Source: Vermamoeba vermiformis
Lineage: Eukaryota
Assembly (NCBI GenBank): GCA_045837725.1
Contig: JBEWZL010000109.1
Location: 124,001 to 188,000, forward strand
Direction of reading: 5' to 3'
DNA: 64,000 bases
Part shown: positions 1 to 48,800 of the stretch, piece by piece
Numbering within the stretch: position 1 is the first letter of the stretch
Layout: each line of letters opens with the position of its first letter
Notes under the pieces: model-generated
Databases searched by the model: none
What the model was told of the DNA's origin: nothing
Seen by the model: the letters and a program-made list of their open reading frames with translations, nothing else
Program-made: the position numbers and the translations under genes

Positions 1-576
1 GAAGTACCGCACGACCATTGGCGATGAAGTGCCGATGATTATCTTGGGCGATGAAAGTCACCCTGACGGCCAAGACGACGAAATGATCCGCGTGGAGAGC
101 TCAGCCAACTTGAAGAAGAGTCTCAGTACCAAGCGTGTTGCTCCCAATGGCAGTGGACAAGATGAGCGTCCACGCATTGCAACTACAATGGGTGACGACA
201 GCGAGGACGGTACTCGCAGTGCAGACAACACGGAATCTGACTCTGAATCATCGGACTCGTCTGATCGCCCTAAGAAAAAGAAGAATGCCGTGAGTGGCAC
301 GAGCAGTCCAGCGCAGAGTCCTACAGGCCGTGGCGGGTAAGTTCATCTTCATGACCTGTATGAGCGCAACTGCTAACATTCATCAGCAAAAATCGCAGTC
401 AAAGCACTATGGACCCTCCTGGCAATCGCCCCACTGCAGACGCCAAGTTAAGGACATCAGACACCGTTAGTCCTCGAGAAAAGAACAATAACAATAACAC
501 GAACTCCATCACCGACGACACGAAGCAAGATGTGCCCAGCATAGTGATCGACTCTGAGAATAAAACTGACAACTAA
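1..576 (+). CDS. 3' end of a gene entering from the left; acidic/Ser-rich low-complexity C-terminus, product unknown
   Basis: Open frame from the window edge; GT-AG intron 337-386 (gtaagt...gctaac...cag); stop TAA at 574-576. Confidence 0.6.
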
Positions 577-634
577 ACAGTTGTTTTCAAATCAAAGTCA
601 GCGATGTACAGCTTAAAATACAATTTTTATTGGG

Positions 635-2172
635 TTAGAACGGGAATATTTCGGCGTTGAGTGTCTCAGCTTTGTAGCCCTCATCAGTGGCGGGATCATA
701 CGGCCCGACAACCATTATAGCACACGTGGCGTGATCAGGCTTGCCAGGGAACAGTGCGTTGTCTGACGGCAATCGTTGTGTCGGGTGTTGTTCCATCCAC
801 TCGCGACTCTTGGCTGTGGCTTCAAAGGCCGAGTTGATGAACTTCTTGGAGAGGTGCATGGGAGTAATGTGATTGGGGTTCTGATTGACGAGCTGTGTGA
901 GGCACTGTTCCATGTACTTCTGCTTGGCCTTGTCGCGCACATCTGACGGCACTTGTTCCCACTTCTCCTCTTGCAGTCCGATCTCTGTAGGCTTCTTGCC
1001 CATGGTGCACGGGTCAAAGTTGTCGTGCACACCGTCTGTCATGATCAACAACAAGTCACCCTAGTGCATGCACTGTTAGACCGAGCGAATTAATGGTGCC
1101 TGTGCTCTTCCTACCTCCTCGCAGCCCACGAATGAAAATCTCAAATTGCGCAAGTCAGGGTCGTTTTGACCAACTTGCGGACCTGTCCTAGTGTTAGCTT
1201 GAATGAAACACAACTGCGCGTGACTCACCAATGCGACCACCAGGATCTGACGCGTCGTCTGTGCCTCTGTTGCCAGCTGTAATGTCAATCACTGCGCGTG
1301 TTCGCTTCGTGTACAAAAATGCCTTGCAATCACCAATGTTGACGAGTACAATGCCGAAGGGTGTCGGGGCTGCGCAATTCACGAGCGAGTCAGTAAAGTC
1401 CTCTGTTTGACACGTGTCACCTACCTTTATCTAACTGCACAATTACACCGCCGACAAGTGTCGTGGTGCCAATGCGATTGAATCTAAACAGTGCCGTGTT
1501 AGTGAGGGCCATGAGTATTGTCTTATCACGTACTTCTCTCGCGCTGCTCCATCGAGAATCTCTTGATGCGCGACAGCAAGGGCAGTGACAAACACTTGCG
1601 CGCAGTCCTTGACTGTCTTCATGTCTGTCGGACAAAGTGTCGTTAAATTAGTAAAGATGAGAATTGTAATCTTGTTAGAGTGCTAATAATATTTTAAATG
1701 ATAATTTATTGCAATATATTTTTAAGCGCAATTTTTAAAAGATATCGCAACGGATCACCTTCATAAATTTTATTCATTAGTTACCTGAAGTCTTGTTGCT
1801 TAAAAATTGTGTAAATGCATCGCGTGCATGTGCTGCTGCACCTTTAACATGAGTTCCCCATCCACAGCCGTCACAAATGCAGAACAAAGTCGCGTTTGAA
1901 AGCGTGTGAATGCGATAAGAATCGCAAATAGGATCTCCTTCACGTCTACAACTCTCTACATCGAGTGGATACGTCGTCGTTGTACGTCCAAACGCGTGAG
2001 AGAAGGGGATGTCAGGAAATTCTTCGTCGTAGGGTCCACTCAAGCGTACTACTGGACTTGATTGTATTTTCTTAATTTTATATGTTGGTAGATTATTAAG
2101 CAGTCCTTTTTCTTGGACCCACTCGTGAATAAGCGTATTTTTCGGTGCCTTTTGTTTCTTGTTCTTCTCCAT
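635..2172 (-). CDS. PP2C-like (PPM-type phosphatase) domain protein, CG9801-like; multi-exon, 5' end uncertain
   Basis: Motifs ICDGCGWG, GTTTLVGG, NIGDCKAF, DPGGRIG, MTDGVHDNFDP and GKPDHAT across GT-AG-linked exons. Confidence 0.75.
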
Positions 2173-2472: not shown

Positions 2473-2917
2473 CTATCCACCAACAATGATTTGGTTGATG
2501 GGAATGAAGATGAGCTTAATAAAGAAGCCAATGAAGCCCATAATAGCAAATCCGATCAAACTGGCGGTAGCAATCTTGACAAACTCTGAACAAAATTAAA
2601 TATTAGCAATGTAATAACCAATACATTACATTCAATCTAAACAATAGTGTGCAATTGGTTTACTATCATTGTATGAAAGGTGGCTGAGATATTTTTTTCA
2701 ATTTTTTTTGGATTAATTTTTAATTGCTTTGAAAGCGTGTAATTAGCATATTAATACTTTTAATAATATTAATTGCACGTATAATTAAATAATCAGCATA
2801 AAGCGGGCAATTTAACCTACCCTTTCGGTCGGGCTTGTTGCATTTGCGAAGCAACTTAACACTGTCGTCAGCAAACTTAACAAGAGGCTTGCCCACGCTT
2901 TCAATGGCCTTGTCCAT
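2473..2917 (-). CDS. SEC61G: Protein translocon subunit Sec61 gamma; exons 2917-2821 and 2585-2473
   Basis: CNKPDRKEF...[26 protein letters not shown] signature; phase-1 GT-AG intron. Confidence 0.97.
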
Positions 2918-3153
2918 CTTCTGTGGTATGTTTTGTGTAATAAATGAATAAAACCTTCGCGTTGGAAAAATTCGTGTTGACAATGCGAAAGACAAATGTT
3001 TGACCAAGATCTGACCGAATGACACAGCAGTCGGGTACGGCCAACAAGAGTAATCGATAAACCGCACAAAAAAAAGGCAAAAAATGCTACCGTAGAGTGA
3101 AAAATATTGGGTTTATGAAAGCTACTAACAGATACGAAAATTTCATCTCGAGG

Positions 3154-5138
3154 TCAAAGGCACTCCTCTTTGTAATTAGACTTGAAGATCCACTCAGCGT
3201 TCGAGCACACCGACAGAAGCAATACGGTGTTATGGATCATCTTCGCAGGGAACTTGCAGAACTCCTCCTGCATCAAGTCCGCCACATCTTGACTAGGGAC
3301 AGACAGCGTGCAAAATCTGCTTCTTCCAAGCGTGTTGCTTCAATACATTCTGCGTGGACATGAGCACTCCAAACAGTTTCTTGTGCAACAACTTCTGAGC
3401 ATCGTCGCGGTCGTACTCGCCGCTGTGCTTGAAAGCGCGCGTAACACTGACGCCGATCACTTGGTCCCACAACTTGCAGCTGTAGTCCGTGATCTTGGAG
3501 CCGTGGGGCCAGTACTCAATCTCCATCTCTGTCTTTTCGAGCTTTGCATTGAAAGCACGTTGCAAGATCTCAAGTGAGAGGGCCTCACTGAACACGCTAG
3601 TGCCTCCAGCATTGGGCAAGTCAATCATCTTCTTGGCATCGCTGCTCCACGACATGCCTGAAGTGTGATTTGCGCGCAATGAGACCTTGTGACGCAGACA
3701 AGCGGGTCTGTCCATGTCATTCACAGCCTTGCAGAGCTGGAAGTACTGAGCCGCAGGGTACGACACGATCATATCGCCACCCAACACGTGTGAGCTCGTG
3801 GTGTTGTCAGAACTCACGCCGTGCACGCCAATGATGTTCGAGGCCAGCGATTGGTCTTCAGCTGCAAACTCGAATATCTCGCGCATCTTGCGACTCTTCT
3901 TGGACTGCTTCTTGCTCGCGTAACTTCTCTTTTTCTTCTTTTGCGACTCGTGGTCGATGCATTTCAAATTGTACCACAAGCCATTCCGAAGCTGCCACTC
4001 GGTCAAATTAAGCGGCAATTGGTGCTCCGAGAAGATTGAGAGTATTAAGAGGATTAAGGAGATTATTGTGTGCGGCACCAAAGGTGAACTGACCAGCACC
4101 GCAAACATTGCATTCCTTATCTTGATGCCAACTCTTCTTTTGGCCCCACTTGGAAATCTTAAATTTGCGCTTAAAAAGTTTAAGATGTCCCTCTTCACCG
4201 AGAACAACGGCTCGTCCTCCAATCTGTTGAGACTGCCCTTCTTGAACGCCTTGTGACTGTTGCTCCACGTGATGAACCGGCACACCAACGACAACATGAA
4301 CTCGCGGCCGTTGAACGGGATAAAGCTGACAATAGGGGGGTACAAAGCAAGGTGAAGTGGTGCAGGTTGAAGTCGTGCGAGTGCATTGTCTACCACCACA
4401 ACCATAGCGCGTCCTCTCCTCCTCACGTATCTCTGTGGATCTTTCAAACCACGACATTGGTTCTCCACGCATAAGACGCTGGAAGGCAATAATAATCGCT
4501 GGAATAATTGGTGCTGGAGGCGCGGCTGGAGCGGCAGCGGCATTTTCATTAGTGGGAAAATGTGACGAGGAGGCTTGGAGAGAGAGAAGACGGCGCGAGA
4601 GGCATAGTAGATCTCGATCCGACAGTCGATCATCCAGATCACAGCGATCAAAATACAACGGCTTGGACGAGGCAGGGGTGGTGGAGTGGAGCAGGGCCCA
4701 CATCTGGCTGGCGGAGATGGGGCGAGCGAGGGCGTCCAAAATCGAGAAGAGGAGAGTGGAGACGATGAGTTGAGCGTCCATTAGCTCACGAGTGAGGACC
4801 AAGAGGCCATTGACCATCGACAGAGACCTACAAGCGCGAATTAGTTTTGAGACGGATGAAGGAATTTGACCAATCGCGTACTTGTCTGCTTGCACCGGGG
4901 ACTCAGAAGGGATCGAGATTCTTTCAACAGTAAGGCAGGCTGGTAACTATATCATGGATTAGTGATTAATTCAATAAAATAATCCGGACGACCTTTGGAT
5001 AAAATTAGAAAAACGAATAAATACGATAAATTTGAATAAAGACTAGCATAATTTTCTTACCCGAATACTGTTTGACTTCATGAAAGTAGGCAAAGATAAA
5101 GAAGACGAAGATAAAGCGCAAGACAACAAAGAGTTCAT
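3154..5138 (-). CDS. AAC4-family protein (like Dictyostelium AAC-rich mRNA clone AAC4) with long N-terminal extension; +1 frame break at ~3295
   Basis: NAGGTSVFSEALS, KTEMEIEY, KITDY, IGVSVTRA, WKKQILH; tail NTVLLLSVCSNAEWIF lies in the next frame; 5' exons linked by canonical introns. Confidence 0.7.
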
Positions 5139-7103: not shown

Positions 7104-8687
7104 ATGGAGCGCCAGACTGTTAGGGTACGTTAAAAAGTTGCTCTAATTACTTAGCTAACCAAATAAAAGATCGCGATCGAAGGCTGCGCTCATGGCGACC
7201 TCGATAAGATATACGATGCAATTGCATACACAGAAAAAATCAATGATTTTAAAGTGGATTTACTAATCTGTTGTGGTGACTTTGAGGTAAGAGATCTGAC
7301 TTTCCAATTTAATTAGTAAAAATTTGGTTGGGGAATATCGAATAATTAATCCCAGGACATAATTGTGGCATATATATACATTTTATTAAAAATACTAAAC
7401 AGGCTATTCGAAACGAAGAAGATCTGGAGTCGATGGCAGTCCCACCCAAGTTCAAAATGATGGGCGACTTTTACAAATATTATTCGGGTGAAAAAGTGGC
7501 CCCAGTATTAACAATATTCGTTGGTGGCAATCATGAAGGTTCGAATTACCTTGTGGAATTGTAAGTACTTTTCTGTTGGTGCTTGTTACTCATTAAGCTC
7601 AGGCCATATGGTGGATGGGTAGCGCCTAATATTTATTATATGGGTCACTGCAATGTACTCAACTATCGAGGACTACGCATATGCGGCATGTCTGGCATAT
7701 ACGGAAACAACGACGAACACTACAAGTGGGGTACGTGCAGTTGCAATTACGTGACGTAAAATTAACCTTCATTAAGGCCACTTCGAGAAAGCTCCGTTCA
7801 ATCAATCTACTATGCGCAGCGTGTATCATATGCGCGAGATTGATGCATTCAAAGTGCGATTAGTAAAACAACCTATTGACATATTCATCTCTCACGATTG
7901 GCCTCGTAACGTCACTGATTATGGCAATATCGATCAATTGCTGCGTGTAAAATCATTTTTTGAACGAGAAGTAAGTGCAGCATAAGAGACATCGAACTGT
8001 ATGACTGACTGTAAAACAGATCCGTGAAAGATCATTAGGCAATCCAGCCACCGAGACCATACTGCACGAGCTACAGCCAGCCTATTGGTTCTCAGCACAC
8101 TTGCACGTCAAGTTCCCAGCATTGGTCAAGCATCAATCGGGACGAACAACAAAGTTTTTAGCGCTCGACAAGTGCTTGCCTCGTCGTGACTTCCTTCAGG
8201 TATGCATCACCACCTAGCGATAAATCATCTAACACCACGACAGGTCTTGGAATTTGAAACAGCCAACAGAGATCAAAAATTGTCCTTTGATCGTGAATGG
8301 CTGTCAATCCTCAAGTCCACACACCTGTTTGACACCCCTCGCAAAATCCTATTGTTCGATATACCGAACCCCAAGTATGCTTTAATATCATAGTCTTATG
8401 CAAAACTAAGCGATTTTAGGGAGTACGTGATTGATGATAAAGACAAAAAAGCAGTGGAAGAGGCATTGACCAAGCACGGAGACGTCGTTCCCGATAACTT
8501 TGTGCGCACTGCTCCTGCGTACCAACATCAAGTGCAGTTTCAACCTGCACCTATTAATCCACAAGTCACAGCACTGTTGAGTATGATTGGTGTAGCGACA
8601 CCTGAATCCGCAGTACAAACTGCACCCAATACGCAGCCACAAGCGGTGCCTGTACCAAATCCAGAAGAGATTCAGCTAGACTTGTAA
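7104..8687 (+). CDS. DBR1: RNA lariat debranching enzyme
   Basis: [59 protein letters not shown] and NPEEI tail. Confidence 0.96.
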
Positions 8688-8967
8688 TACGATGTTAATG
8701 TATATAGCATTCCGGTTCAACTTGTAAATTAAATGAACGTACAAAAAGCGATTGTCTAAACAGATAGGGTCGGTTTGTAAAAGCGACAGACAAGTCTTAA
8801 ATTCATATGTGTTTGTTCTTTTGATAGCACGCCACTAGGCTATCATAGCAGTTACAGTGATTTTTGTTAGTCTGGGAAATCTCATTTGCGAGATTAAAAT
8901 TAAGCCGCTCGAAAAGGGGAGTTAGTAGTACTTGTTTAAACTTAGAGCCACCAGAGGACCCTTACAA

Positions 8968-11711
8968 ATGGCGACTGTTAAGAGAGCTATAGCCCTGGAG
9001 GATTTCGCGGCCGTAAAGGACGTAGAATTAGCCTTCAAAAAGGGAGATGTAATACAATTTATCATCTCGGATGAGGAGAGCGGTTGGGCGAAAGGCGAGA
9101 AAGATGGAAAACTTGGATGGTTCCCTCGAACATTTATTAGAATTTTGGAGGGCACTGAACTTGAACAGAAGTTGGAGGAAAAGGTAAGCAGATTAAATAA
9201 AAAATTAAACTTAATTCAAAAATATTCAAACCAATTTAGTTTCGCAATAAAATCATCAAAATGAATTTTATATACGATGTATTAATCAATTACTCATCTA
9301 ATTCCATTTAGGGTAAGTTGTGACGATCGAGCAAAACAACAGTTGGATTTCACAAGCAGCGTAATTTCGAATTGTTATCTGTTGCTAACTTGCATGTAAA
9401 TTAGTGAAAGAAATGGAGACGCAAGAAACTGAGCTGAAAGTTAAAGAAGACGCGCTTAGGCAGCAATTGGAAGATGTAACCAACCAACTCAAAGAGTTAG
9501 CCAGACGAAAGAGACAAATACACAATGAAATTAGAGTCGCTAAGGGTACGTGATTTTTCTTTTAGCAATCTGAAAATTGGTTCAATTTGGATTTGACCGT
9601 TTGCGTAACATACATCCGAAAATTCGCTCCCAACTAGATTATTGCAGGCATTAAGCGTTATAAAAATATTTAAAATAATATTTAAATACTAGGTGGTGCT
9701 CCTGTTATCTACGAAGAAGACGAATCTGAAACTCAAGACGAGTGGATTAAACCTCTCGCTTCTCCCAAGCGACGAATTGAAGACGTAAAAGAAATCAAAG
9801 AGCTTGAAAATGGTAAATGTATGTATATTTATTAATCCGTCACATTCGAGTACCGCATACTGACCAAACAATTAGCTTCATCGACTAGCCACAAGAAATC
9901 ACCGTCAGTGGAAATTAAATTGGACAAAAAGAAATCTTCAATCAAATTGTTCTCAGGCACTGGCAAGACGAAGAAAGATGACGAAGATAAAGACAAAGAC
10001 AAAAAAGGCAAAGAAAAGCGCGATAAAGATAAAAAGGGCAAAGACAAGGCCAGCACACCCAAGAGCAGTGCTAGTCCGCGCGACGACAAGAAAAAAGATC
10101 CCAAAGAAAAGAAAAGCAAAGAGAAGGCGACCAAGAAGCACACTAAGGGTGGCGACAAAGCTAGCAATGGTAACATAACAACTCGATCGATATATTTGAA
10201 GACTAATTGTTGTTGCAGTTAAATTCGGCAGTGGCGAACAAGATGCGTTGCGCGGTCGCAGTTCAACATTCACACAGTCTGACGGCGGTGAAGGTGATAC
10301 TCCAAATAGCGACATCTCCAAGGATAAAGTGGTACGTGTGAATGACGTCCAATTACGATGTAGTTGTGGTATTAACAATTGATTTATCAGCGCGAACAAT
10401 ATTCCAACCGAAAATGGAAATCAGAAGCACATTTGGCCAAGGAACTCGAGTCCAATCCTTATCGGTTAGTTTCGATGTCATTCAAGCGATTAGACTCATT
10501 CTGACTTGCCTCGCTTTAGATTATCCAATCAAGAAGTAATTCCTGCTCCTCGTTTGCCCGGTCCTATGCCTAAAATGGAAGAAGCCAAGCCCACACTAGA
10601 CTCTCTTGTGAAGAAGGAAGATCCGACCAAATTTTACATTAATATTAAGCCAATCGGTGAAGGGTAAATATTTTCGCAATATTATTAATGATCCTGCTTA
10701 ATAACACTTTATTTAGTACTTTCGGAGAAGTATTTGTGGCTACAGACATGCGCACACTTGAAAAAGTAGCGTTGAAAAAGATGAACCTCGACGACAACTA
10801 CGAAGAGGACTTGATCACTGAAATTCAAATGATGCAAACACTGAAGCATCAAAACATTGTAGATTATATTGACGCTTACAAGTGGAAGAATGACTTGTGG
10901 GTCGTGATGGAATTCATGGGCGGCGGAAGTCTGACTGAAATCTTAGAACTGTACAAAACTCTTCAACTCACCGAGCCTCAGATTGCATTGCTCTGTTTCG
11001 AGGTACGCATTTATCACTTTAATCTATCGATGCTTGCCTTTCTAACCTACTATTCAGGCCCTTAAAGCTTTGGAATACATTCACAGTCTGCACCGCATTC
11101 ACCGCGACATTAAGAGTGACAATATTTTGTTGAATCTCAACGGCGATATTAAACTCGCTGATTTTGGATACACGGTGCAGCTGACTGAAAAGAAGAAGAA
11201 CAGAAACACCACTATTGGCACACCGTATTGGGAGGCCCCTGAAGTGATTACAGGCGAGAACTACGACACTAAAGTTGATATCTGGTCTTTGGGTATTATG
11301 GCCATGGAGATGGCTGAAGGTGAACCTCCATACATGGACTTGCCTCCTCTCGCTGTACGTAACAGAGTCAATCTTATCAATTATAGACCTTGGCGCTAAT
11401 TGTACCTACAGGCTCTGCGGTTGATTGTAGTTGACGGCATTCCTCCACTCTACGACAACAAATGGTCGCCTGAGTTCCGTGACTTTGTGTCGTGCTGCTT
11501 GAAGATTAAAGTCGACGAGCGAAACTCTGCCTCACAACTGTTGCGAGTAAGTGCTGCGAGCTCTTCGCAACTAAACATTAACTAATTGCTTGTTTCGTAG
11601 CACCCATTCATTAGCCGAGCTTGCAGCAAAGATGAGATCAAAAAGATTATCAAGGCTGTCAAGGCTGCCAAGGAAGAAGAGGAGAGCTCTGGAAGCGAAG
11701 AAAGCTCGTAA
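8968..11711 (+). CDS. SH3 + coiled-coil + Lys-rich + PAK/STE20-like Ser/Thr kinase; no CRIB domain seen
   Basis: SH3 (ALEDF...ELAFKKGD...GWAKG...GWFP); kinase [42 protein letters not shown]; the SH3-kinase fusion needs a microexon at ~9312. Confidence 0.85.
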
Positions 11712-11869
11712 CGGATTCAGTGGTCTGTTGCGAGATTGTGAGTAGTCTTATTTATTTGAGCTTCGAAAGAATATTGTAGAAATTATAAAATCATTTGTAT
11801 TGTACAATCATAAAATTCTAAAATTCCGTTTCTGTTTTGTGGAGGTGTTTGGAGCGCATTAGGCAATCA

Positions 11870-20329: not shown

Positions 20330-21568
20330 ATGGAGCTAAATACAAAATCAGATGCCCCTCCCAGCACTTATTTACCCTCACATTTGTTCCCTAACTCGGT
20401 AAATATTTTTGGCAATATGCGTACCATTATTAAAAGTTGAATTAGTCTCAAAATTATTTTTACAAGCCGAACTGCGAATTAGATCCAACTTTTATTTTAA
20501 TGACACTTTTTATCAGGCCCCAAAGGGCATGCCAGTGACTAGACCAGCTACATATGACCCTATTAACACGGAGTTCATCGACACTTACAACGGCAATCTC
20601 TACGGCAAGTACGGCGAGGACGCAGATCGCAGTTTCTCCACTGGGTACGTCATAGCTGCGCTGTCATAACAATACTGACTGCCATCATAGCTCGCCCATG
20701 GATAGGCGCGGCGATACTAAGAAAGGTGCACCAGTCCAATCACAAGCACCGCCGACTCAGTCCATCTACGATCTGATCGGTGAACCCAACACGAGCGTGA
20801 ATGAGGTGCGTTATTCTAGCGTATTCATCGAATACATCTGAATAACAGCTGATATATATGCACGTAGTCAATACAATTAGGGCCCACTACACCGCCACAA
20901 ACACCGTTCAGACTGACTGCACTCACATCTGCCTCTTCAACACAGCGGTGAGTACAAATACTTGCAATAGTAGTGCCATTACTAAATAAGGCAACAGCTC
21001 GGTCGATGCCAGCGATCAATTCACGCCAGCAGCCCCGCGCATTGAAGTGCATGATCGTTGGATCACAGTGTTTGGCTTCAATCCCACCGCCATCCCCGCC
21101 ATACTGCAACAGTTCCAGTCCTATGGCGAGGTGATTAAAGTGCGTCACGGTCCGACCAATGCCAACTGGATCCACTTGCAGTACCGCACCAAGTTACAGG
21201 CCCTCAAAGCCCTCGAGAAGAATGGTCGCACATTGAACGGCACATTGATGATTGGTGTCGTGCCCTGCACTGACAAGGTGAGTGGCGATATCACCTGCTG
21301 ACTGGACATATGACCCAACGCTGACTAACACGCCACAGCTCGTTATCTCAGGTCAGGGCAGCAGTGTGCCAGAGCCGTCAGTCCGACTCATGACTGGACC
21401 ACAGAAATTCCGCGCAGCATCGAGGTGAGTGCTGATTGGTCGCTATTTTTAGCTCAATACTGACACGTTGACAGCGAGTACAGTCTCGACAAGATTGAGC
21501 CAGCCAATGCCCCGCAACCCCGTCGATCATTGTGGTCTAATGTACTGACCTATGTGTTTGGCATATAA
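20330..21568 (+). CDS. NUP35: Nucleoporin Nup35/Nup53
   Basis: YLPSHLF, PPTQSI, RRM with WITVFGF / NWIHLQY / MIGVVPC, C-terminal amphipathic SLWSNVLTYVFGI. Confidence 0.88.
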
Positions 21569-39827: not shown

Positions 39828-42800
39828 TTACAGCAAAGAAGCAGCAAGCTCTTTGATTTTGATTTTGTATTGCTCTCCGATGTTCAGCGAGGCGACGCTG
39901 TTGTTCAGCGCAGTCAAAGCATTCTTGCACGAAGCAACGAGCAGTGTCTTGAGTTCAGGGTCGTGCGCAGCGATGACTAAGGCGTGCAACACAGAGATCA
40001 ACTGCTGCGCGGAGTCATCGTCAGTGACAGTCATGGCAGTCAATTTGTTGGCCAGATGGGCGCTGATGTTCTGTCTGTCATCGGGGGACAAGCGAGGCAC
40101 CAACTGTTGCGAGATTAATATACAACACTAAGAACAATATTAATCAAAGCTACGTACCACTGGGAAGATTTGTTGCGCGAATTTCAACGTGTCAGCGACG
40201 CTCAAGTGCTCCGTGTGTTTGGACAAGAGCTGCGAGACGAAGGTGATCAGCGCGGCATCTTGGAGCAGTGCTTGGCGCAGTTCGTGCTCTTCAGGTAGCT
40301 CCAAGAAGCGCGCGAGTGTGCTGACGACCGTGGCACAGGCAGCGGGTGGGAGGGACAAGGACTCAATGGCCGAGTACAGCACGAGAGCAGTGGTCTGTGT
40401 GGCAATGGCCTCGTCTGCGTCTTCAACCACCAAGTTGGCGAGCTGTTGCACGAACTCCAAGTAGTGCAGCTGCGAGGCAGGAGCTTGTTCTTCAGTCTCC
40501 ATCTTGTCGTTCACATCGACTTGCGACAACAAGTGCTGTTGACGCAGCCCAGTGATCACCAGCTCCAAGCATCCATCGTCAATGTGCGCCAGAGTGAGCA
40601 GCAGTTGACGGCACACGCGCACAAAGTTGTCCTGATTGGCGTGCTCTTTCATCACCGTCACCACAAACTCGATCAAATTGCCCTTGTTGTTCCAGCTGTT
40701 CGAGAGCTCTGTTTGCACCTTGGCAATGCGCTCTTCGTCCACTTCAGCCTCCTCGAATGCAGCACCAATCTTCTGGAAGACATCGAGCACGGTGATCAAC
40801 AGCGGGGAGAGTGCGTTGTGCTCGTCGACCCAAGTGTGGTGCAGCACAATCTTGGTGAAGTGTTGCAACATCTTCTTCTCGAGCAGAATGAACTTGTCGT
40901 CGAACGGCGACTCCAAAATGAACGTGAGCACACGCAGCAAGTGCTTGAGTGCGTGACTGACGGACTTGTCCAGCGAGGTGAACACTTGCTTCAGGGTCGA
41001 TTGGCGCATACGTGGCAGTTCATTGTAGCCGCGCGTGAGGATGCGGAACAAGACGTCTGCAGTGCGCGGGTACTCGGCTGATTCGAGGTACAAGAAGCGC
41101 ACAGTCCAGTCCCAGTTGTGCGCACCCAACATGCGCTCCAAGAAGGTGACATCAGCGGCAGCACATCGATCCACAATGCCGTAGTAGTGCGGCAGTGACT
41201 CGTCGTTGAAGCTGTAGAAAGCAGGACAGGCGCGCAGGGAGATGAAGTAGCTGAAGAAGCGCGTGTAGACCTTGTCGTCTTGCATGATCAGCTTGAGACC
41301 TTCGTCGTTGCCTTCGAGGGCCTTGTTCCAGTACTGCACCAGCGCGAGCTTGTTGAGATCGCACTCCATATTCACATCGATGGCGCTGAACAGCTTGAAG
41401 AAGGTGTCAAAGTGCGCGTTGAACAGCTGTTTCTCGCGCGGTGAAGTGAGACCCCACTGCAAGAAGCGGAACATGCTCAACAGACGCCAGTAACCGCTCG
41501 GATAGCCCTCGTCAGCGGTGCGTGTGAACTGCGCAGTGTCACCCGTGGCATTGAGTCGTGCGAGCGGGAACAGACTGAGCACTGCAGTGTAGATCTTGAC
41601 GAAGCGTGCATCGACGACGAGCGGATCTGCTTCGAGACCCACAAACACGACTGGTGTGACCTCCTCAGCGGGCTGATCAGCGAGCACGTCGTCCTTGGGC
41701 AGGTGCGTGTTGTAGCCAGGCAGTTCAGGCACCATCCACAACAGCATCGTCTCGGTGACTAGACGCAGCTCTTCGTAGGTCTTGTAGAACAGCAGGTCTT
41801 CAATCCACAGCTCAATCGTGTCCAGCATGAAGCGACGCAGCACGGGCAGGGCGGGCATCAGCTCGAGAATGAGACGCACGGCGTGATATGTGGCGTTCTT
41901 GTACTTGAGATTGTTCTTGATCACTTCGAGGTACCTGCGAATGCCGTGCTCCACGCGCGTGGCGTGCAGCGAGTCTTGCATGCGCAACAGCTGGGCGTAG
42001 ACAATAAAGTAGGGCTTGAACTGCTCGTAGTTGACCTTGTTGATGCCACTGTTGAGCAGATCCAGCACGCGAATGGAGAGTGCTTCGTTCTCGTAGCACA
42101 AGTGACAGATGAGCTCACTCGCTGCAGTCGGGTGAATGCCATCGCCAATCACGCGCTCCAAGAAGATGTCGGAGCTGATCAGTGCCCAGTCCTCGACACT
42201 CATCACCAGTGCTGGGCCCGGCAGTTGACTCGGTGTCGCGCTGTCACTGCTCGCTGCCTGATAGCTCTCGCTGTCCTCACTCGGTGCTCGCGGCACACAA
42301 CCGCGCACCAGTGCTGCAATCGTGCCCACGGTGTGCTTCATGTTGCTGAGCTGTTGCTTCTCGGTCTTGCTCTTCTTGTTGGGCTTGGCTTTCTTGTTGA
42401 GTCGCGGTGCATCGTCTTGCAGGTAGTAGTCCGCGAGCACAGTGAGGGCCTTGTGCTTCAACAGGAACTGCCGCTCTGGGGCACCAAGCGCTGCGAACTC
42501 TTCGAACACCAAGAAGTACTGATTGAAGTAGCGCCAGTGATTGTTGGCCTCTTTCAGCAGTGCCATCACGTGCTCCATGAATCGCACAATCACGGAGCTC
42601 GAATCACCGCGCGACTTCTCAAAGGCCAGGGGCACTATCTCGTCGTCACTGCGGCGCTCAATCTCCATGGCCTCGCTCTGCATGGTCACATCTTCCACTT
42701 CCACATCGTACAGTGCGCGCTCGTGTGCAGCGAGGCCTGACAGAGCCAGGGCCAGCAGCTTGACGTACTTCTCGCGCGCTTCAGGCACGGGGCTGTGGAA

Positions 42801-45800
42801 CAACATCTGCTTCAACCACGCGCAGTCATTGGCCAGCGAGGCCTCCAACAGCCAGCGACAGCCAGGCACGTGGTGTTGATACAGCTGCGACAAGAGCTCC
42901 ACAATCTCGTTCAAGTTGTCGCGCTCCTTGGCGTGGGCCAGTGTCTCAATGAAGAAGCGCGTGCCCAGCTCCAGCGAGGCAAACACAGGGTCAAACACGC
43001 GCGGCTGTGGCTGCTTGTAGTCCTGCACCATGTAGTCGAGACTGTGCGCGTAGTCGTTGTTGTGTGCCGTGGGCTTGTAGAGTGCCAGCACGCGCTGCAC
43101 AAAGTTGGTGTAGGAGGGATCGAAGATGTGCTTGTCGTGCAAGAAGCGAATGTTCTCTTCCCACACTTGACGGAACAGCTCCGATTGGCCTGTGACTGCA
43201 CTGCTCGTGGACTCGGTGCGCGGTTCAGTGCCGAGTGGATTGGGCTCGACTTTGCTGTAGAACAACATGTATGCGTTGTTGGGACGCATTTGATTGCGCG
43301 TCACTCGCTTGCCCTGCGCCGAGTCCCAGCTCTGCACCGACTCGTAGCCACCGAAGCACTGCGCGGGAATGTCAGCGGGGTCAAATGGCTCGACCAGCAC
43401 GTCGTTGAACTGGTACCAGCGTCCAGCAGCACCGCGCTCCTTGATGAACGAGTAGTAGTGGCCACTCTCTGCCGTGCCCGTGTGCACCAAGATGCCGCTC
43501 AGCTCGTACTCGTAGTAGGACAGCGGGTGCAGTGCCTCCACGGTCTTGCCAGCTTGTTGTTGTTCGCGGCGGTGCAGGCCCTCTTTGGTGTACGGCTCCA
43601 GACTGAGACGCATCGGGAACTCGCAGTGATCGTTCACTTTGGTGCGACGCATGCTCTCAAAGTCAAATTCGAAGCGCTTCAAGTGAATGATGAGGTTGTT
43701 GGGCAGGCCCTTGAGACAGCAGCGCTTGAGGGCATCGACCTTCTTGCCGCAGGTGCTGCACATGTACTTGTTGTCGCCTTCCAGCACGTCACCTTGCACG
43801 AACAGCTCCAGCGAGTCCTCGAGCTTCTTCTTGCCCTTCACTTCCACGCTGAACGAGAAGAAGCCCTCCTCGCGCTCAGAGGTGTGCTCGCACTCCTTGC
43901 TGATGATCTGATTCAGCATGGTGCCACCAAAGAAGTTCTTCAGAATGTGATCTTGCGGTGTGCCCTTGAGCAGCGTCTCCACCTTGTCGAACAGCATGTT
44001 GAAGAACTCATCGGCGTCCATCTGCACGGCGGGATTCATGGGCTGACCGTCGTACTTGTAGGCCTTGCAGAACTCTTTGGGATCGTAGAACTTCTTCTCG
44101 CTCTCCTGCAAGTAGGTGAAGATGGCTTGGAACTGATGCAGCAGACTCTCGCGCTTGTCTTCTTGACGGTCGGGCGCGGTGAGAATGCCACGACGGAACT
44201 CGGGGATCATGAAGAACTGCTGCATGAGCGAGTTCATGTAGCAGGTGGCACCCAAGTTCTTGAGGCCCACGTAGCCCACAGAGCCCTTCTCGTAGCCACT
44301 CGGCAAGTAGCTCCACTGACGGCGCGGCTCAGCGAGATTGTGCTGCACGATCAGACGATAGACGAGCTGCTTCATGTTGTCGGGATGATTGCGCGCCAAT
44401 TCTTCGAGCAGTTTGAAGGCACCACCGCGACTGGCGAGGGACTTGCAGCGCGGGGGAGTGATGGCTTGCTTGGCGTGATTGGGCTCGGGTATCTCGAACA
44501 GACACTGATAGAACACTTGCGACACGAGATCTCCACCACCCTGCGCAGTGGACAGACCTGCGAGTGTCTTGAACTCGCTGTCCTTGCTGATCAGCGTGGT
44601 GACGAGCTGCATCAGACCAATCAGCACTTGATCTTCCACTTCAGGCTGCGCTGTCGTCTCCACAATTGGATGGCGATGAATCATCTCGGTGCACGTGACG
44701 AGCAGCGATTTGAACTGGCGCGGCGAGGCACCCCCGACGCCTGAACACGCGTCTTGCAGCAAGCGATTGACGAGCTCAAAGTACTGTGCACAGGTGCGCA
44801 TGGTGGGACTGATGCCCGGCAAGTACTGCAGCAGCTGTTGCAGCAACACCGTGGTGGGCAGGGGTGTGCCCTCACGCACGGATTTGCAGATCTGATACAG
44901 GCCCTCCACGGCCTTCTCGCGCACGAGATCGTACTCGGATGTGAGCACGAGCGATGAGAGCCAGTTGGCAAAGTGCGCGTGTGTGAGCAGTGCTTGCAGC
45001 GAGGCAGTGCTGCTGAGGGTGGCTGCAACGAGCAGGGGCATGGCGTGCTTGACCACTTGCTCGGGCTCACTCTCCGTGCGCTCCAACAGCGTGCTCAGGA
45101 CATTGCTGCCGTCCTCGCTCACTGCTGCTGGCGCCGCTGTGTCCGTGCGCGCGTCGTTGGGCAGCTGGGCGACGGTCCACGTGATGTGCATCAACTTGCT
45201 GAGCAGCTCGAGCACATTCTGACCACTGCGCGCCAAGACCTCGTTGAACTGCGGCACATCGAGCTGATTGCGCGTGAGCACAAAGGCGCTGACAATCTTC
45301 AACAGCAGCACCAGACAGGCCAATCGCTTGCTGCCCTTGCTCTCCTCCAAGAACTCGCTCGTGCTCAGCACTTGAATCAGATGCGACACGCCACCACGCA
45401 GCACAAACTGTTGTCGCCACGACTCTTCACCTTCAGGTTGCAGCAGGGACTCCACGATCTGCAGCGCGTACAGCAGTTTGAACAGCGAGCGCGGATCCAA
45501 CAGCTCGTTCCAGTTCGGATGCATCGGATCTGTGTCGTGCGGAGTGCGCAATCGTTGCAGCGAGTCGAGCATGGTGGGGTTGGTGCGCAGCTTCATCAAG
45601 AGGTCCCACACGAGCTGACCAATGCTGCCAGGCAAGATGAGCAAGTCGAACAGCTGCGCAAAGTAGCGCTCTTGTGCCAGCTGGCGCGAGGGCAACATCT
45701 CGTCGTCTTCTTTCTCGCTCGGTGCACTCACTGCTGGACGTGCGTGCGCCTCCACACTGCCATCAGCCGCACGCCGCATGTACCGCGTCACGTGCACGAC

Positions 45801-48800
45801 TTGATTCTCGGTGAGTCGCAGATCTGAGAGCGTGTCGTTGTCGTTCTTCAATTCTTTGCCCGTGGTGAGCAGCCGCAACACCTCTGCGGACTCGTTGATG
45901 TGCTCAGCAATCTTCTGACGCAGCTGGCCGACTGTGTCTGCAGTGGTGAGCACCACGCTGAACTTGCTGCCGTTGAGCACCACAATGTTCAGCGTCACCG
46001 TCATGCCACTCGACTTGGCACCGTGACGACCGCGCGATGACGAGCCCTCAAAGGCCTCAATCAGCGACTTCAACAGCGTCAAGCAGCGCACAATGCGCAG
46101 TGACAGTGCAGCATCGGGCTTGACGGCGTACTCTTTGGCCGCACTCGACAGATACGCCATGCACTGGGCGATGAATTCTTCGCGCAGCTTGACCAGCTGG
46201 GGCTTCAAATCAGGTGCGAGCTGTGACAGCGGTGAGTGCGCGCTCGCGGGTGCAGCAGGGGGTGGTACTTACAGCCTTGTACAGTCGCGTCATCAATTGC
46301 ACGGCAGACTTGCCAACCTCGGCGTGGCGACACTCGAGCACGATGCGCCACAAGAGTGCCAGTCCGTCGAGATTGAACGACAGCACTGCGAATTCTTTGT
46401 CACGTGATTCGTACACCACAATCTTCTTGCGATTGGCATTCACGATGCGGAACAAGAACTCGAACGAATTGAGTCCTTGCACGGTGAGCGCTGCAAAATC
46501 GAGCTCCGCAAACTTGTGATCGAAGATGTACTCGATCGACTCGTCCGTCAGCGAGGCGTATTCTTTGTTGTTGGTGGTCGAGCGCGAGGTCTCAATCCAC
46601 TGCAGACCCAAGTCACGCTCCTCCACGGTGAGGCCCTGCACGACAATGGACTGCCACAGCGTGTCGAGCTGTTGCGGCGTGAGACTCAAATCTGAATTGC
46701 CCAGCGTGAAGTCCAGGAATTCAAAGCGCTCGCGAATGTGCTGCAAATGTTGCCACTTGCCAATGAACATCGTGTTGATGTCCACCACGTGACCTGCAGG
46801 CAACTTGGCGAGCTCCTGCTTGACGTGTTGGTGATAGGTGTGCAGATTGGCGAAGAAGGTGTCGAACAGATGGTATTCTTTCTCTGCCGCGGTGATCACT
46901 GCGCCAATGCCCTCACGCTCCTCGCGACGATTGTACGAGCCTGCACATCAGAGAGGTTAGAACTGCGGGCACATAGCGCTGCCTCAGACGCGTACCGAAT
47001 ATGCGCGCCAACAATCGCAACGACTGCGGCACAGACTTGCCCTCCTTGAGATTGGTGAGACAGAGCATAATGTAGTGATTGCTGTGCAGGTCTGTCAGTC
47101 ACACGTGTATGCAGCGAGGTGTGCGCGAGGACACTACGTACCGATGGGGTAGCACTGGGGTCATGGCGAACAGCTCCATCAAGGTGTTGAGGGCACTCAT
47201 GAACAGCTCGTGCGGCACATTGGTCTCGTCGAGAATCAAGTTCCACAGTGCCTCCAAGCCATAGTAGCGCTTCTCGTGGTGTTGTTGCGCCACACCGAGG
47301 CCGTGAATGGTGACATCGCGCACCAGACTCAGCGTGTTGGCGCTGTACTCGTGATAGGGGATCAGTTTGATGCGCTCAAACAAGTAGTCGAGCTGCTCCA
47401 CGGTGAGGTAGCTGGCGAGTGCCTTGATGCTGCCCCACACCGTGTGACTGATGGTCTCGTGCTTGGCGGACGAGGCTTGCCACAGCAGATCAATGTGACG
47501 CTGTTCGAGCTGTCCCTGCACGGCCAAGAACTTGAGCAGATCACTCGCGCGCTTGATCAGTTCGAGGTGCATATTCGCACCATACAAGTACTCTACCACT
47601 TGCTTCTCTTTGAACCAGCGAATTAAATAGTCAATGTCAATGCCTGGATCTGAGTCCATCATCATGCGTTCACCGTGACGCAACAACATATCGCGCTTGT
47701 TCAATACGCGCACTGTGACCTCGCGTATGTCGCTCAAGCCTGCAATGCGCTTTTCTAAGAAAGGTGACTTCAAGAACTTGAGCGCCATATCGAGTTTGAA
47801 TCGTTCCATGAGCTCTGTAGAGTCGTCCATGTGATGCAACAAATCTTCCATAATTGATATGATATCCGCCACTGTTTTACGATCTTCGTTCTTCAGTTCA
47901 TCATCGGTTACGTTCAACAAGTGATCCAAAACCAGATCGCGCAGTTCAGGCAAGTATTGTGAGTGAAGATACTGCGAGTCAAGATAATCCTTGATCTGTC
48001 GTAAACAAGATGCCTATTAGTCATATTCACAAAACAGGTAACACCACGCAGCTGACCTTGAGCACGAGTTTGAGCATGCAGCGCAGTACGGAGAGAGGCG
48101 TGCGCGGCTGTTTGTTCTTGATGCGCTCTAAGATCTGTTCGAGACCTCCGCGACGCACGAATAGCTCGACATTCGACACTAAATAGGCTGAGGCCCACTT
48201 GCTGTGCACCTACAAGCGTGCCAAGGTAAGTCAGATGGTTTGTCACGCCATTCAACACTACGCACCGTGACTTGAGGAGTATTCGGGTCCTCTTCGTATT
48301 CGAGAGTGAACTCTTCTTTGGACTGCGAGTCGTCTTTGCCGTAGTGATCGTAAAATATGTACACTGAACTGTGCGAGTAGATGCGCGCCATTGTCTCCCA
48401 AGCTGAGATCATATCATAGTCGGCATAATCCAGCAAAAATAAGAGCGATTTTTGCATGAATTGGTTGAATCTAGATGCCACATCGACACTAACGTCTCTG
48501 AAAATAAAGAAATTTAAGAATATGTTTTCACCGCCAAGAAAATTGATTTTGTTGCTCATTTGCGTCAATTTGTGAGGCAAGCACTTACCCTCGCTTGAGA
48601 ATACCCGTTATAACTTTGATAAAGAAATTTTCAATATAAAGGTGCGCTCTGTCTGGTTTTGCTTCCTCTAATGCATCCAACCACTCTTCTATTACTCGTA
48701 ATGCATTCAAAGGATGCATATCTAAATATTAAGGATGAGTTAGCATGCAATTCTGAATCAGGAGGTTGGGTTATTTTTTTCGTTTCCACAAAATAAACGA

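Follow-up and report, generated by a model that had tools for sequence, protein, structure and literature searches.

The gene at 8968-11711 on the forward strand of the window, by which we mean the whole 64-kb stretch of DNA that was analysed, belongs to a Vermamoeba-like amoeba. As read from its sequence, its product is a PAK-type Ser/Thr kinase of 645 aa in which the catalytic domain is preceded by an SH3 domain, a coiled coil and a Lys-rich linker. The parts of the gene are listed below; the third of them, a single letter between two introns, is the subject of this analysis.

8968..9183, forward strand: exon 1, with the ATG start, 72 codons, the SH3 domain and a phase-0 end; present in the contigs of all four transcript runs.
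9184..9311, forward strand: intron 1a, 128 nt, GTAAGC...CTAAT (9298-9302)...TTTAG, GC 0.20; missing from all four transcript contigs.
9312..9312, forward strand: probable one-nucleotide exon G, the first base of a Val codon (G/TG); one G in the cDNA in four of four runs.
9313..9404, forward strand: intron 1b, 92 nt, GTAAGT (9313-9318)...CTAAC (9385-9389)...ATTAG, GC 0.37; missing from all four contigs, apart from a G that the aligner places on 9404.
9405..9545, forward strand: second sizeable coding exon, TG AAA GAA ATG..., entered in phase 1, a predicted coiled-coil linker.
9546..11711, forward strand: remainder of the gene, with nine more GT..AG introns, the Lys-rich linker and the PAK-type kinase domain; stop codon at 11709-11711.
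9546-9692, 9819-9875, 10170-10218, 10332-10390, 10465-10519, 10664-10716, 11003-11057, 11355-11411 and 11547-11600, forward strand: the nine further introns, taken from transcript joints.

The upstream gene on the same strand (8400-8688) ends with a TAA at 8686-8688, and since transcripts of the kinase gene begin at or before 8941, the intergenic or promoter space between the two measures at most about 250 nt. Farther away, an unbroken open reading frame of 2022 codons occupies 40140-46208 on the reverse strand, within a block of 0.56-0.59 G+C as compared to about 0.40-0.45 around the kinase gene. Its Pfam matches are a ubiquitin-like domain, UCH (E 1.6e-56) and DUF3517, and by these matches it looks like a large and seemingly intronless USP-type deubiquitinase.

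A word-based search with the protein encoded by the SH3 exon returned one cluster of relatives, including P0001 (JGI/Logan, 640 aa) and P0004 (645 aa), the latter being the product of a Trinity transcript that its source names Vermamoeba vermiformis. The product of the window is identical to P0004 at 617 of 645 positions and shares 606 identical residues with P0001. Exon 1 matches SH3_1 in Pfam (E 2.7e-12), the exon at 9405..9545 matches no Pfam family at E <= 0.01, and the catalytic part matches Pkinase with E 3.3e-65 when the near-identical P0004 is the query. The solved kinases nearest to P0004 are PAK1, PAK2 and PAK3 (E 5e-82 to 4e-79), with the MST kinases STK3 and STK4 ranking behind them (E 1e-69). 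Through P0004, the amoeba protein thus shares its type of catalytic domain with the group I PAK kinases (PAK1-3). Those kinases have an N-terminal CRIB/p21-binding domain, whereas the amoeba protein has an SH3 domain followed by a coiled coil; a Pfam search at E <= 0.01 found SH3 and kinase families in P0004 and P0001 and no CRIB/PBD domain. Word-based searches with the SH3 exon and with the first 130 residues gave the P0001 cluster alone and hence no more distant orthologue with the SH3-PAK architecture. In the genome and viral contig collections there was no match by protein scan, nor any match to a donor-spanning DNA pattern that allowed GG or GGG. The metagenome contigs yielded a single locus, which begins at about residue 260 and so does not cover the junction. 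Its segment at 45-1533 (forward strand) corresponds to the 3' two-thirds of an orthologue from a relative (75-82% identity), and a second kinase, 40-46% identical, lies on its opposite strand at 2515-3262.

The problem posed by the 5' part of the gene is one of phase. Exon 1 ends in phase 0 with the AAG at 9183, and the exon at 9405, which begins TGAAAGAAATG, needs one more base; joining 9183 straight to 9405 produces a TGA immediately after codon 72. Between the two exons lies TTTAG/G/GTAAGT (9307-9318; slashes mark splice boundaries), in which a single G at 9312 sits directly between an acceptor AG (9310-9311) and a donor GT (9313-9314). Its inclusion gives AAG GTG AAA (K-V-K) and a frame that stays open for 645 codons, as many as P0004 has residues, corresponding to a CDS of 1938 nt. 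An earlier note on this DNA, made from the sequence alone, had described this phase mismatch, the arrangement of branch point, acceptor, G and donor, and the contrast between an immediate TGA and an open K-V-K frame, and all of its positions were found again when the window was re-read. Each of the two flanking introns has its own donor, branch motif and acceptor (GTAAGC/CTAAT/TTTAG and GTAAGT/CTAAC/ATTAG), like the ordinary introns of the gene. The branch sites were predicted from motif and spacing; in both sub-introns, a YTRAY motif is located 10-16 nt 5' of the acceptor, the same distance as in the nine undisputed introns. The perfect donor of intron 1b, GTAAGT, occurs in just one of the nine other introns. 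A further TTTAG, with a TTAAT upstream, is present at 9235-9239, 56 nt past the exon-1 donor and hence at a typical intron length for this gene. An acceptor at 9239 would, if used, read into the TAG at 9309-9311, and no joint using it occurs in the four transcript contigs.

The evidence that carries the case comes from transcripts. Matches to the sequence were found in 20 public runs, each covering at most 0.44 of the sampled words, and for all of these runs the RNA status is a guess. Contigs of four runs from four studies (X1, X3, X4 and X6) were aligned to 8800-11800, and because they lack every intron of the gene they were taken as spliced transcripts; all of this evidence comes from one species or from very close strains (>94% protein identity). 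In the contigs of all four runs there is exactly one G between 9183 and 9405, as the earlier note had predicted for cDNA across 9150-9450. The note had also warned that aligners could misreport the joint, and this is what happens: the aligner joins 9183 to 9404, skips 220 nt with ends GT..TA ("both = 2") and assigns the extra G to G9404. The record coordinates are contiguous at the joint (1775/1776 in X1, 1016/1017 in X3, 225/226 in X4 and 160/161 in X6), and the piece at 9404-9544 has no mismatch and no added letters in the contigs of the four runs; together, these two observations mean that the mRNA has one G between ...GAAAAG and TGAAAG.... Since the contigs of X1 (2018 nt, spanning 8941-11765) and X4 (2001 nt, spanning 8959-11773) cover both parts, the SH3 exon and the kinase are on one transcript. 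This disposes of two possibilities raised in the note as potential refutations, namely a transcript of the kinase alone, starting at the ATG at 9413 and distinct from that of the SH3 exon, and a 4-nt CAGC exon at 9357-9360, given that the cDNA junction contains one letter and not four. The same contigs remove the nine other introns, which are 49-59 nt long except for one of 147 nt, and every one of which is GT..AG. The residues LEEK-V-K are found at the junction in both P0001 and P0004, two independent transcript-derived proteins. Two small variants were seen elsewhere in the transcripts: X6 has a C for T at 10717, the first base past intron 7 (GGT to GGC, silent), where the aligner gave a GT..GT joint with the C between, and in the 3' UTR at 11721-11724 there are deletions of 1 nt and 8 nt that vary from run to run.

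Where does the G come from? We enumerated all routes from the genome to the observed 61-nt cDNA junction. Removal of a single block can give the cDNA in three ways, with ends GT..TA, TA..AG or AA..GT, all of them non-canonical. Among the 176 two-intron solutions, exactly one is canonical (GT/GC..AG for both introns), and this is the removal of 9184-9311 and 9313-9404 with retention of G9312. The sequence YAGGGTAAGT occurs once in the 64-kb window when both strands are considered, as against an expected 0.09 (a match in 9 of 100 shuffles), and when the 195-nt intron interior was shuffled 100,000 times, AGGGT appeared in 5.0%, AGGGTRAGT in 0.055% and YAGGGTAAGT in 0.019% of cases. The only other places in the window where a branch site and YAG are followed after 1-3 nt by GTRAGT are 20946-20947 (forward strand) and 45732-45733 (reverse strand), in both of which the spacer is 2 nt; the site at 45732-45733 falls within the long USP reading frame and is probably due to chance. 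A stwintron or a zero-nucleotide recursive site removes one contiguous block that starts and ends with G and leaves nothing behind. Both were rejected here, because one G stays in the mRNA and the possible contiguous blocks end in GT..TA, TA..AG or AA..GT. No further copies of either sub-intron, which would hint at an introner-like origin, are present in the 64-kb window, the best other match being 16 nt long.

We consider it likely, with a probability of roughly 88%, that G9312, in a nuclear gene of this amoeba, is a real one-nucleotide exon and is included constitutively. Its main competitor is an indel in the assembly or between strains, in which case the true genome would have an extra G, reading AAGGGTAAGC at the donor (AAGG/GTAAGC) or TTAGGTGAAAG at the acceptor (TTAG/GTGAAAG) where the window reads AAAAGGTAAGC and ATTAGTGAAAG, respectively. 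A plain 220-nt GT..AG intron would then yield exactly the cDNA observed, and the TTTAG/G/GTAAGT inside it would be coincidental. Both candidate sites, the GG at 9183-9184 and the position beside G9404, are G runs, which are places where long-read assemblies can undercount. We nevertheless regard this explanation as improbable. One would have to assume two coincidences independent of each other, first an indel at either of just two sites and second a perfect acceptor-G-donor arrangement with a branch site (about 2-5 in 10,000), and the intron would become the longest of the gene. Moreover, there is no indel between the assembly and the four transcripts across the 1938-nt CDS, including its runs of 6-7 A, so the assembly appears to be indel-clean in the coding sequence. 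A single non-canonical intron, removed in one event of 220 nt with ends GT..TA, TA..AG or AA..GT while G9312 is never used, would agree with what the aligner reports and would dispense with a one-letter exon altogether. We find this extremely unlikely: the other introns of the gene are GT..AG without exception (9/9), cleavage would have to miss the good canonical sites AAG/GTAAGC and ATTAG/ by one base, and a fully canonical alternative is available in the form of two introns around G9312. The known spliceosomal intron classes are GT-AG, GC-AG and AT-AC, and the three pairs of ends fall outside them.

The remaining competitor accepts the exon and changes its use. The earlier note had proposed that inclusion or skipping of the G could switch between the full kinase and an SH3-only or NMD-targeted product, the former being 72 aa long. 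Skipping would lead to an immediate TGA, and P0002 and P0003, both JGI gene calls, begin precisely with the Val (GTG) of the junction, as would fit transcripts with a closed upstream frame. These calls may just as well be truncated or intron-retaining contigs, derived perhaps from environmental transcripts that were partly spliced or had lost their 5' end; P0003 ends in '...LLRVSI', reading into the last intron. The transcripts did not bear the switch out, with the included form alone being present in four of four runs from four studies and no G-skipped joint (9183 to 9405) in any of their contigs, although this is a weak negative, as contigs lose rare variants. On balance, regulated inclusion seems very unlikely to us. 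Constitutive inclusion of G9312 is the reading that we follow below.

How could an exon of one nucleotide be spliced? The acceptor of intron 1a (TTTAG/G) and the donor of intron 1b (AGG/GTAAGT) share the same 10 bases, so splicing factors could not occupy both at the same time, and from this we infer that intron definition operates twice in succession, taking out one intron before the other. The exon is therefore probably spliced in two successive steps, that is, in two separate events. Such stepwise removal would resemble the use of a recursive splice site, except that one base remains. Were intron 1a to be removed first, the new junction AAG-G/GTAAGT would recreate a donor in the manner of recursive splicing; were intron 1b to go first, the acceptor of intron 1a would gain a normal downstream exon. 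The absence of skipping would be accounted for if each donor paired over a short range with the branch site and acceptor closest to it. No partly spliced intermediate, with one sub-intron removed and the other retained, was found in the contigs of the four runs. In Drosophila and vertebrates, ratchet points are zero-nucleotide recursive splice sites that subdivide very long introns and leave nothing in the mRNA. The amoeba site is like them in having an acceptor directly beside a strong GTAAGT donor and, if the route above is right, in the stepwise removal of the two halves. It differs in that one base stays and in that the halves measure 128 and 92 nt.

In the predicted fold of intron 1b (-22.8 kcal/mol, z -2.14, with 9 of 200 shuffles as good), the 5' end, which includes the splice site, is paired to the region of the branch site, and no comparable excess of folding is predicted for introns 1a and 2. 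This signal is weak and may be due to chance. Given the predicted pairing and the overlap between the intron 1a acceptor and the intron 1b donor, one could imagine that the one-letter exon acts as a control point, at which the order or efficiency of the steps would be tuned, for example at encystment, giving either the full SH3-PAK kinase or a transcript that is SH3-only (72 aa) or targeted to NMD; such exons might, besides, be common and systematically overlooked in amoebozoan annotations. We think this is a long shot. As to the origin of the arrangement, two speculative options can be named. Exon 1 may formerly have ended in ...AAG G, with intron 1a arising later at an AAG/G proto-splice site. 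The other option is that the loss of one base was compensated by a cryptic AGGGT, by analogy with what has been suggested for a Fusarium gene (see below).

The earlier note had described one-nucleotide exons as known but very rare, and the literature agrees. In Fusarium CYP621A, a one-nucleotide exon with an AG/G/GT core has support from public transcript (SRA) reads, and a cryptic AGGGT that rescued a one-base loss is suggested as its origin (Nelson & Syed 2026, PMC12940212). The two cases are alike in their AG/G/GT core, in the restoration of phase by the G, in a composite "intron" more than twice the usual length, in read support from public transcripts and in being missed by automatic gene models. 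They differ in that CYP621A encodes a fungal P450 in which the G occupies the second position of a conserved Gly codon, within a catalytic-fold motif, and shows conservation across 24 genes, whereas in the amoeba kinase it is the first base of a linker Val codon and has been seen in close strains. In Arabidopsis thaliana, the single-nucleotide exon A333 of APC11 was proven by genomic resequencing together with substitution and deletion constructs, and its authors propose intron definition with sequential, recursive-like removal (Guo & Liu 2015, PMC4674806). That exon is likewise constitutive, flanked by AG and GT, located inside an annotated intron and essential for the frame. The letter is an A in a plant gene and rests on constructs, while the amoeba letter is a G known from the assembly and transcripts. 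Finally, a long-read annotation of Coprinopsis cinerea lists 13 one-nucleotide exons in 13 genes (PMC12230235). Such exons recur in genomes with short introns and intron definition, and break gene models when missed; the basidiomycete figure is a genome-wide count and the amoeba exon is one described case. Among the papers listed by a literature search on one-letter exons there was no amoebozoan example, and those listed by a broader, unspecific search on microexons in amoebozoans contained no microexon term.

With regard to its sequence-level features, G9312 is a further case of a known and very rare kind of exon. As the first base of the Val codon, the G shifts the phase from 0 to 1 and thereby joins the SH3 domain and the kinase in a single polypeptide; were it skipped, translation would stop after residue 72, directly behind the first domain. 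The consequences for annotation are direct. Gene finders and spliced aligners cannot represent a one-letter exon, and the aligner used here reported a GT..TA intron in its place; gene models would break the SH3-kinase up into two genes, shorten it or postulate a non-canonical intron. At 221 nt the locus is small and would make a handy natural substrate for the study of sequential splicing under intron definition. One-letter exons are the smallest that the spliceosome can retain, and the AG/G/GT core common to Fusarium and the amoeba suggests a general rule, in which no letter but G suits the consensus of the acceptor and of the donor alike. The transcript-backed case in this amoebozoan would extend one-letter exons to a third eukaryotic supergroup, and it would do so as an annotation lesson in a new supergroup rather than as a new principle.
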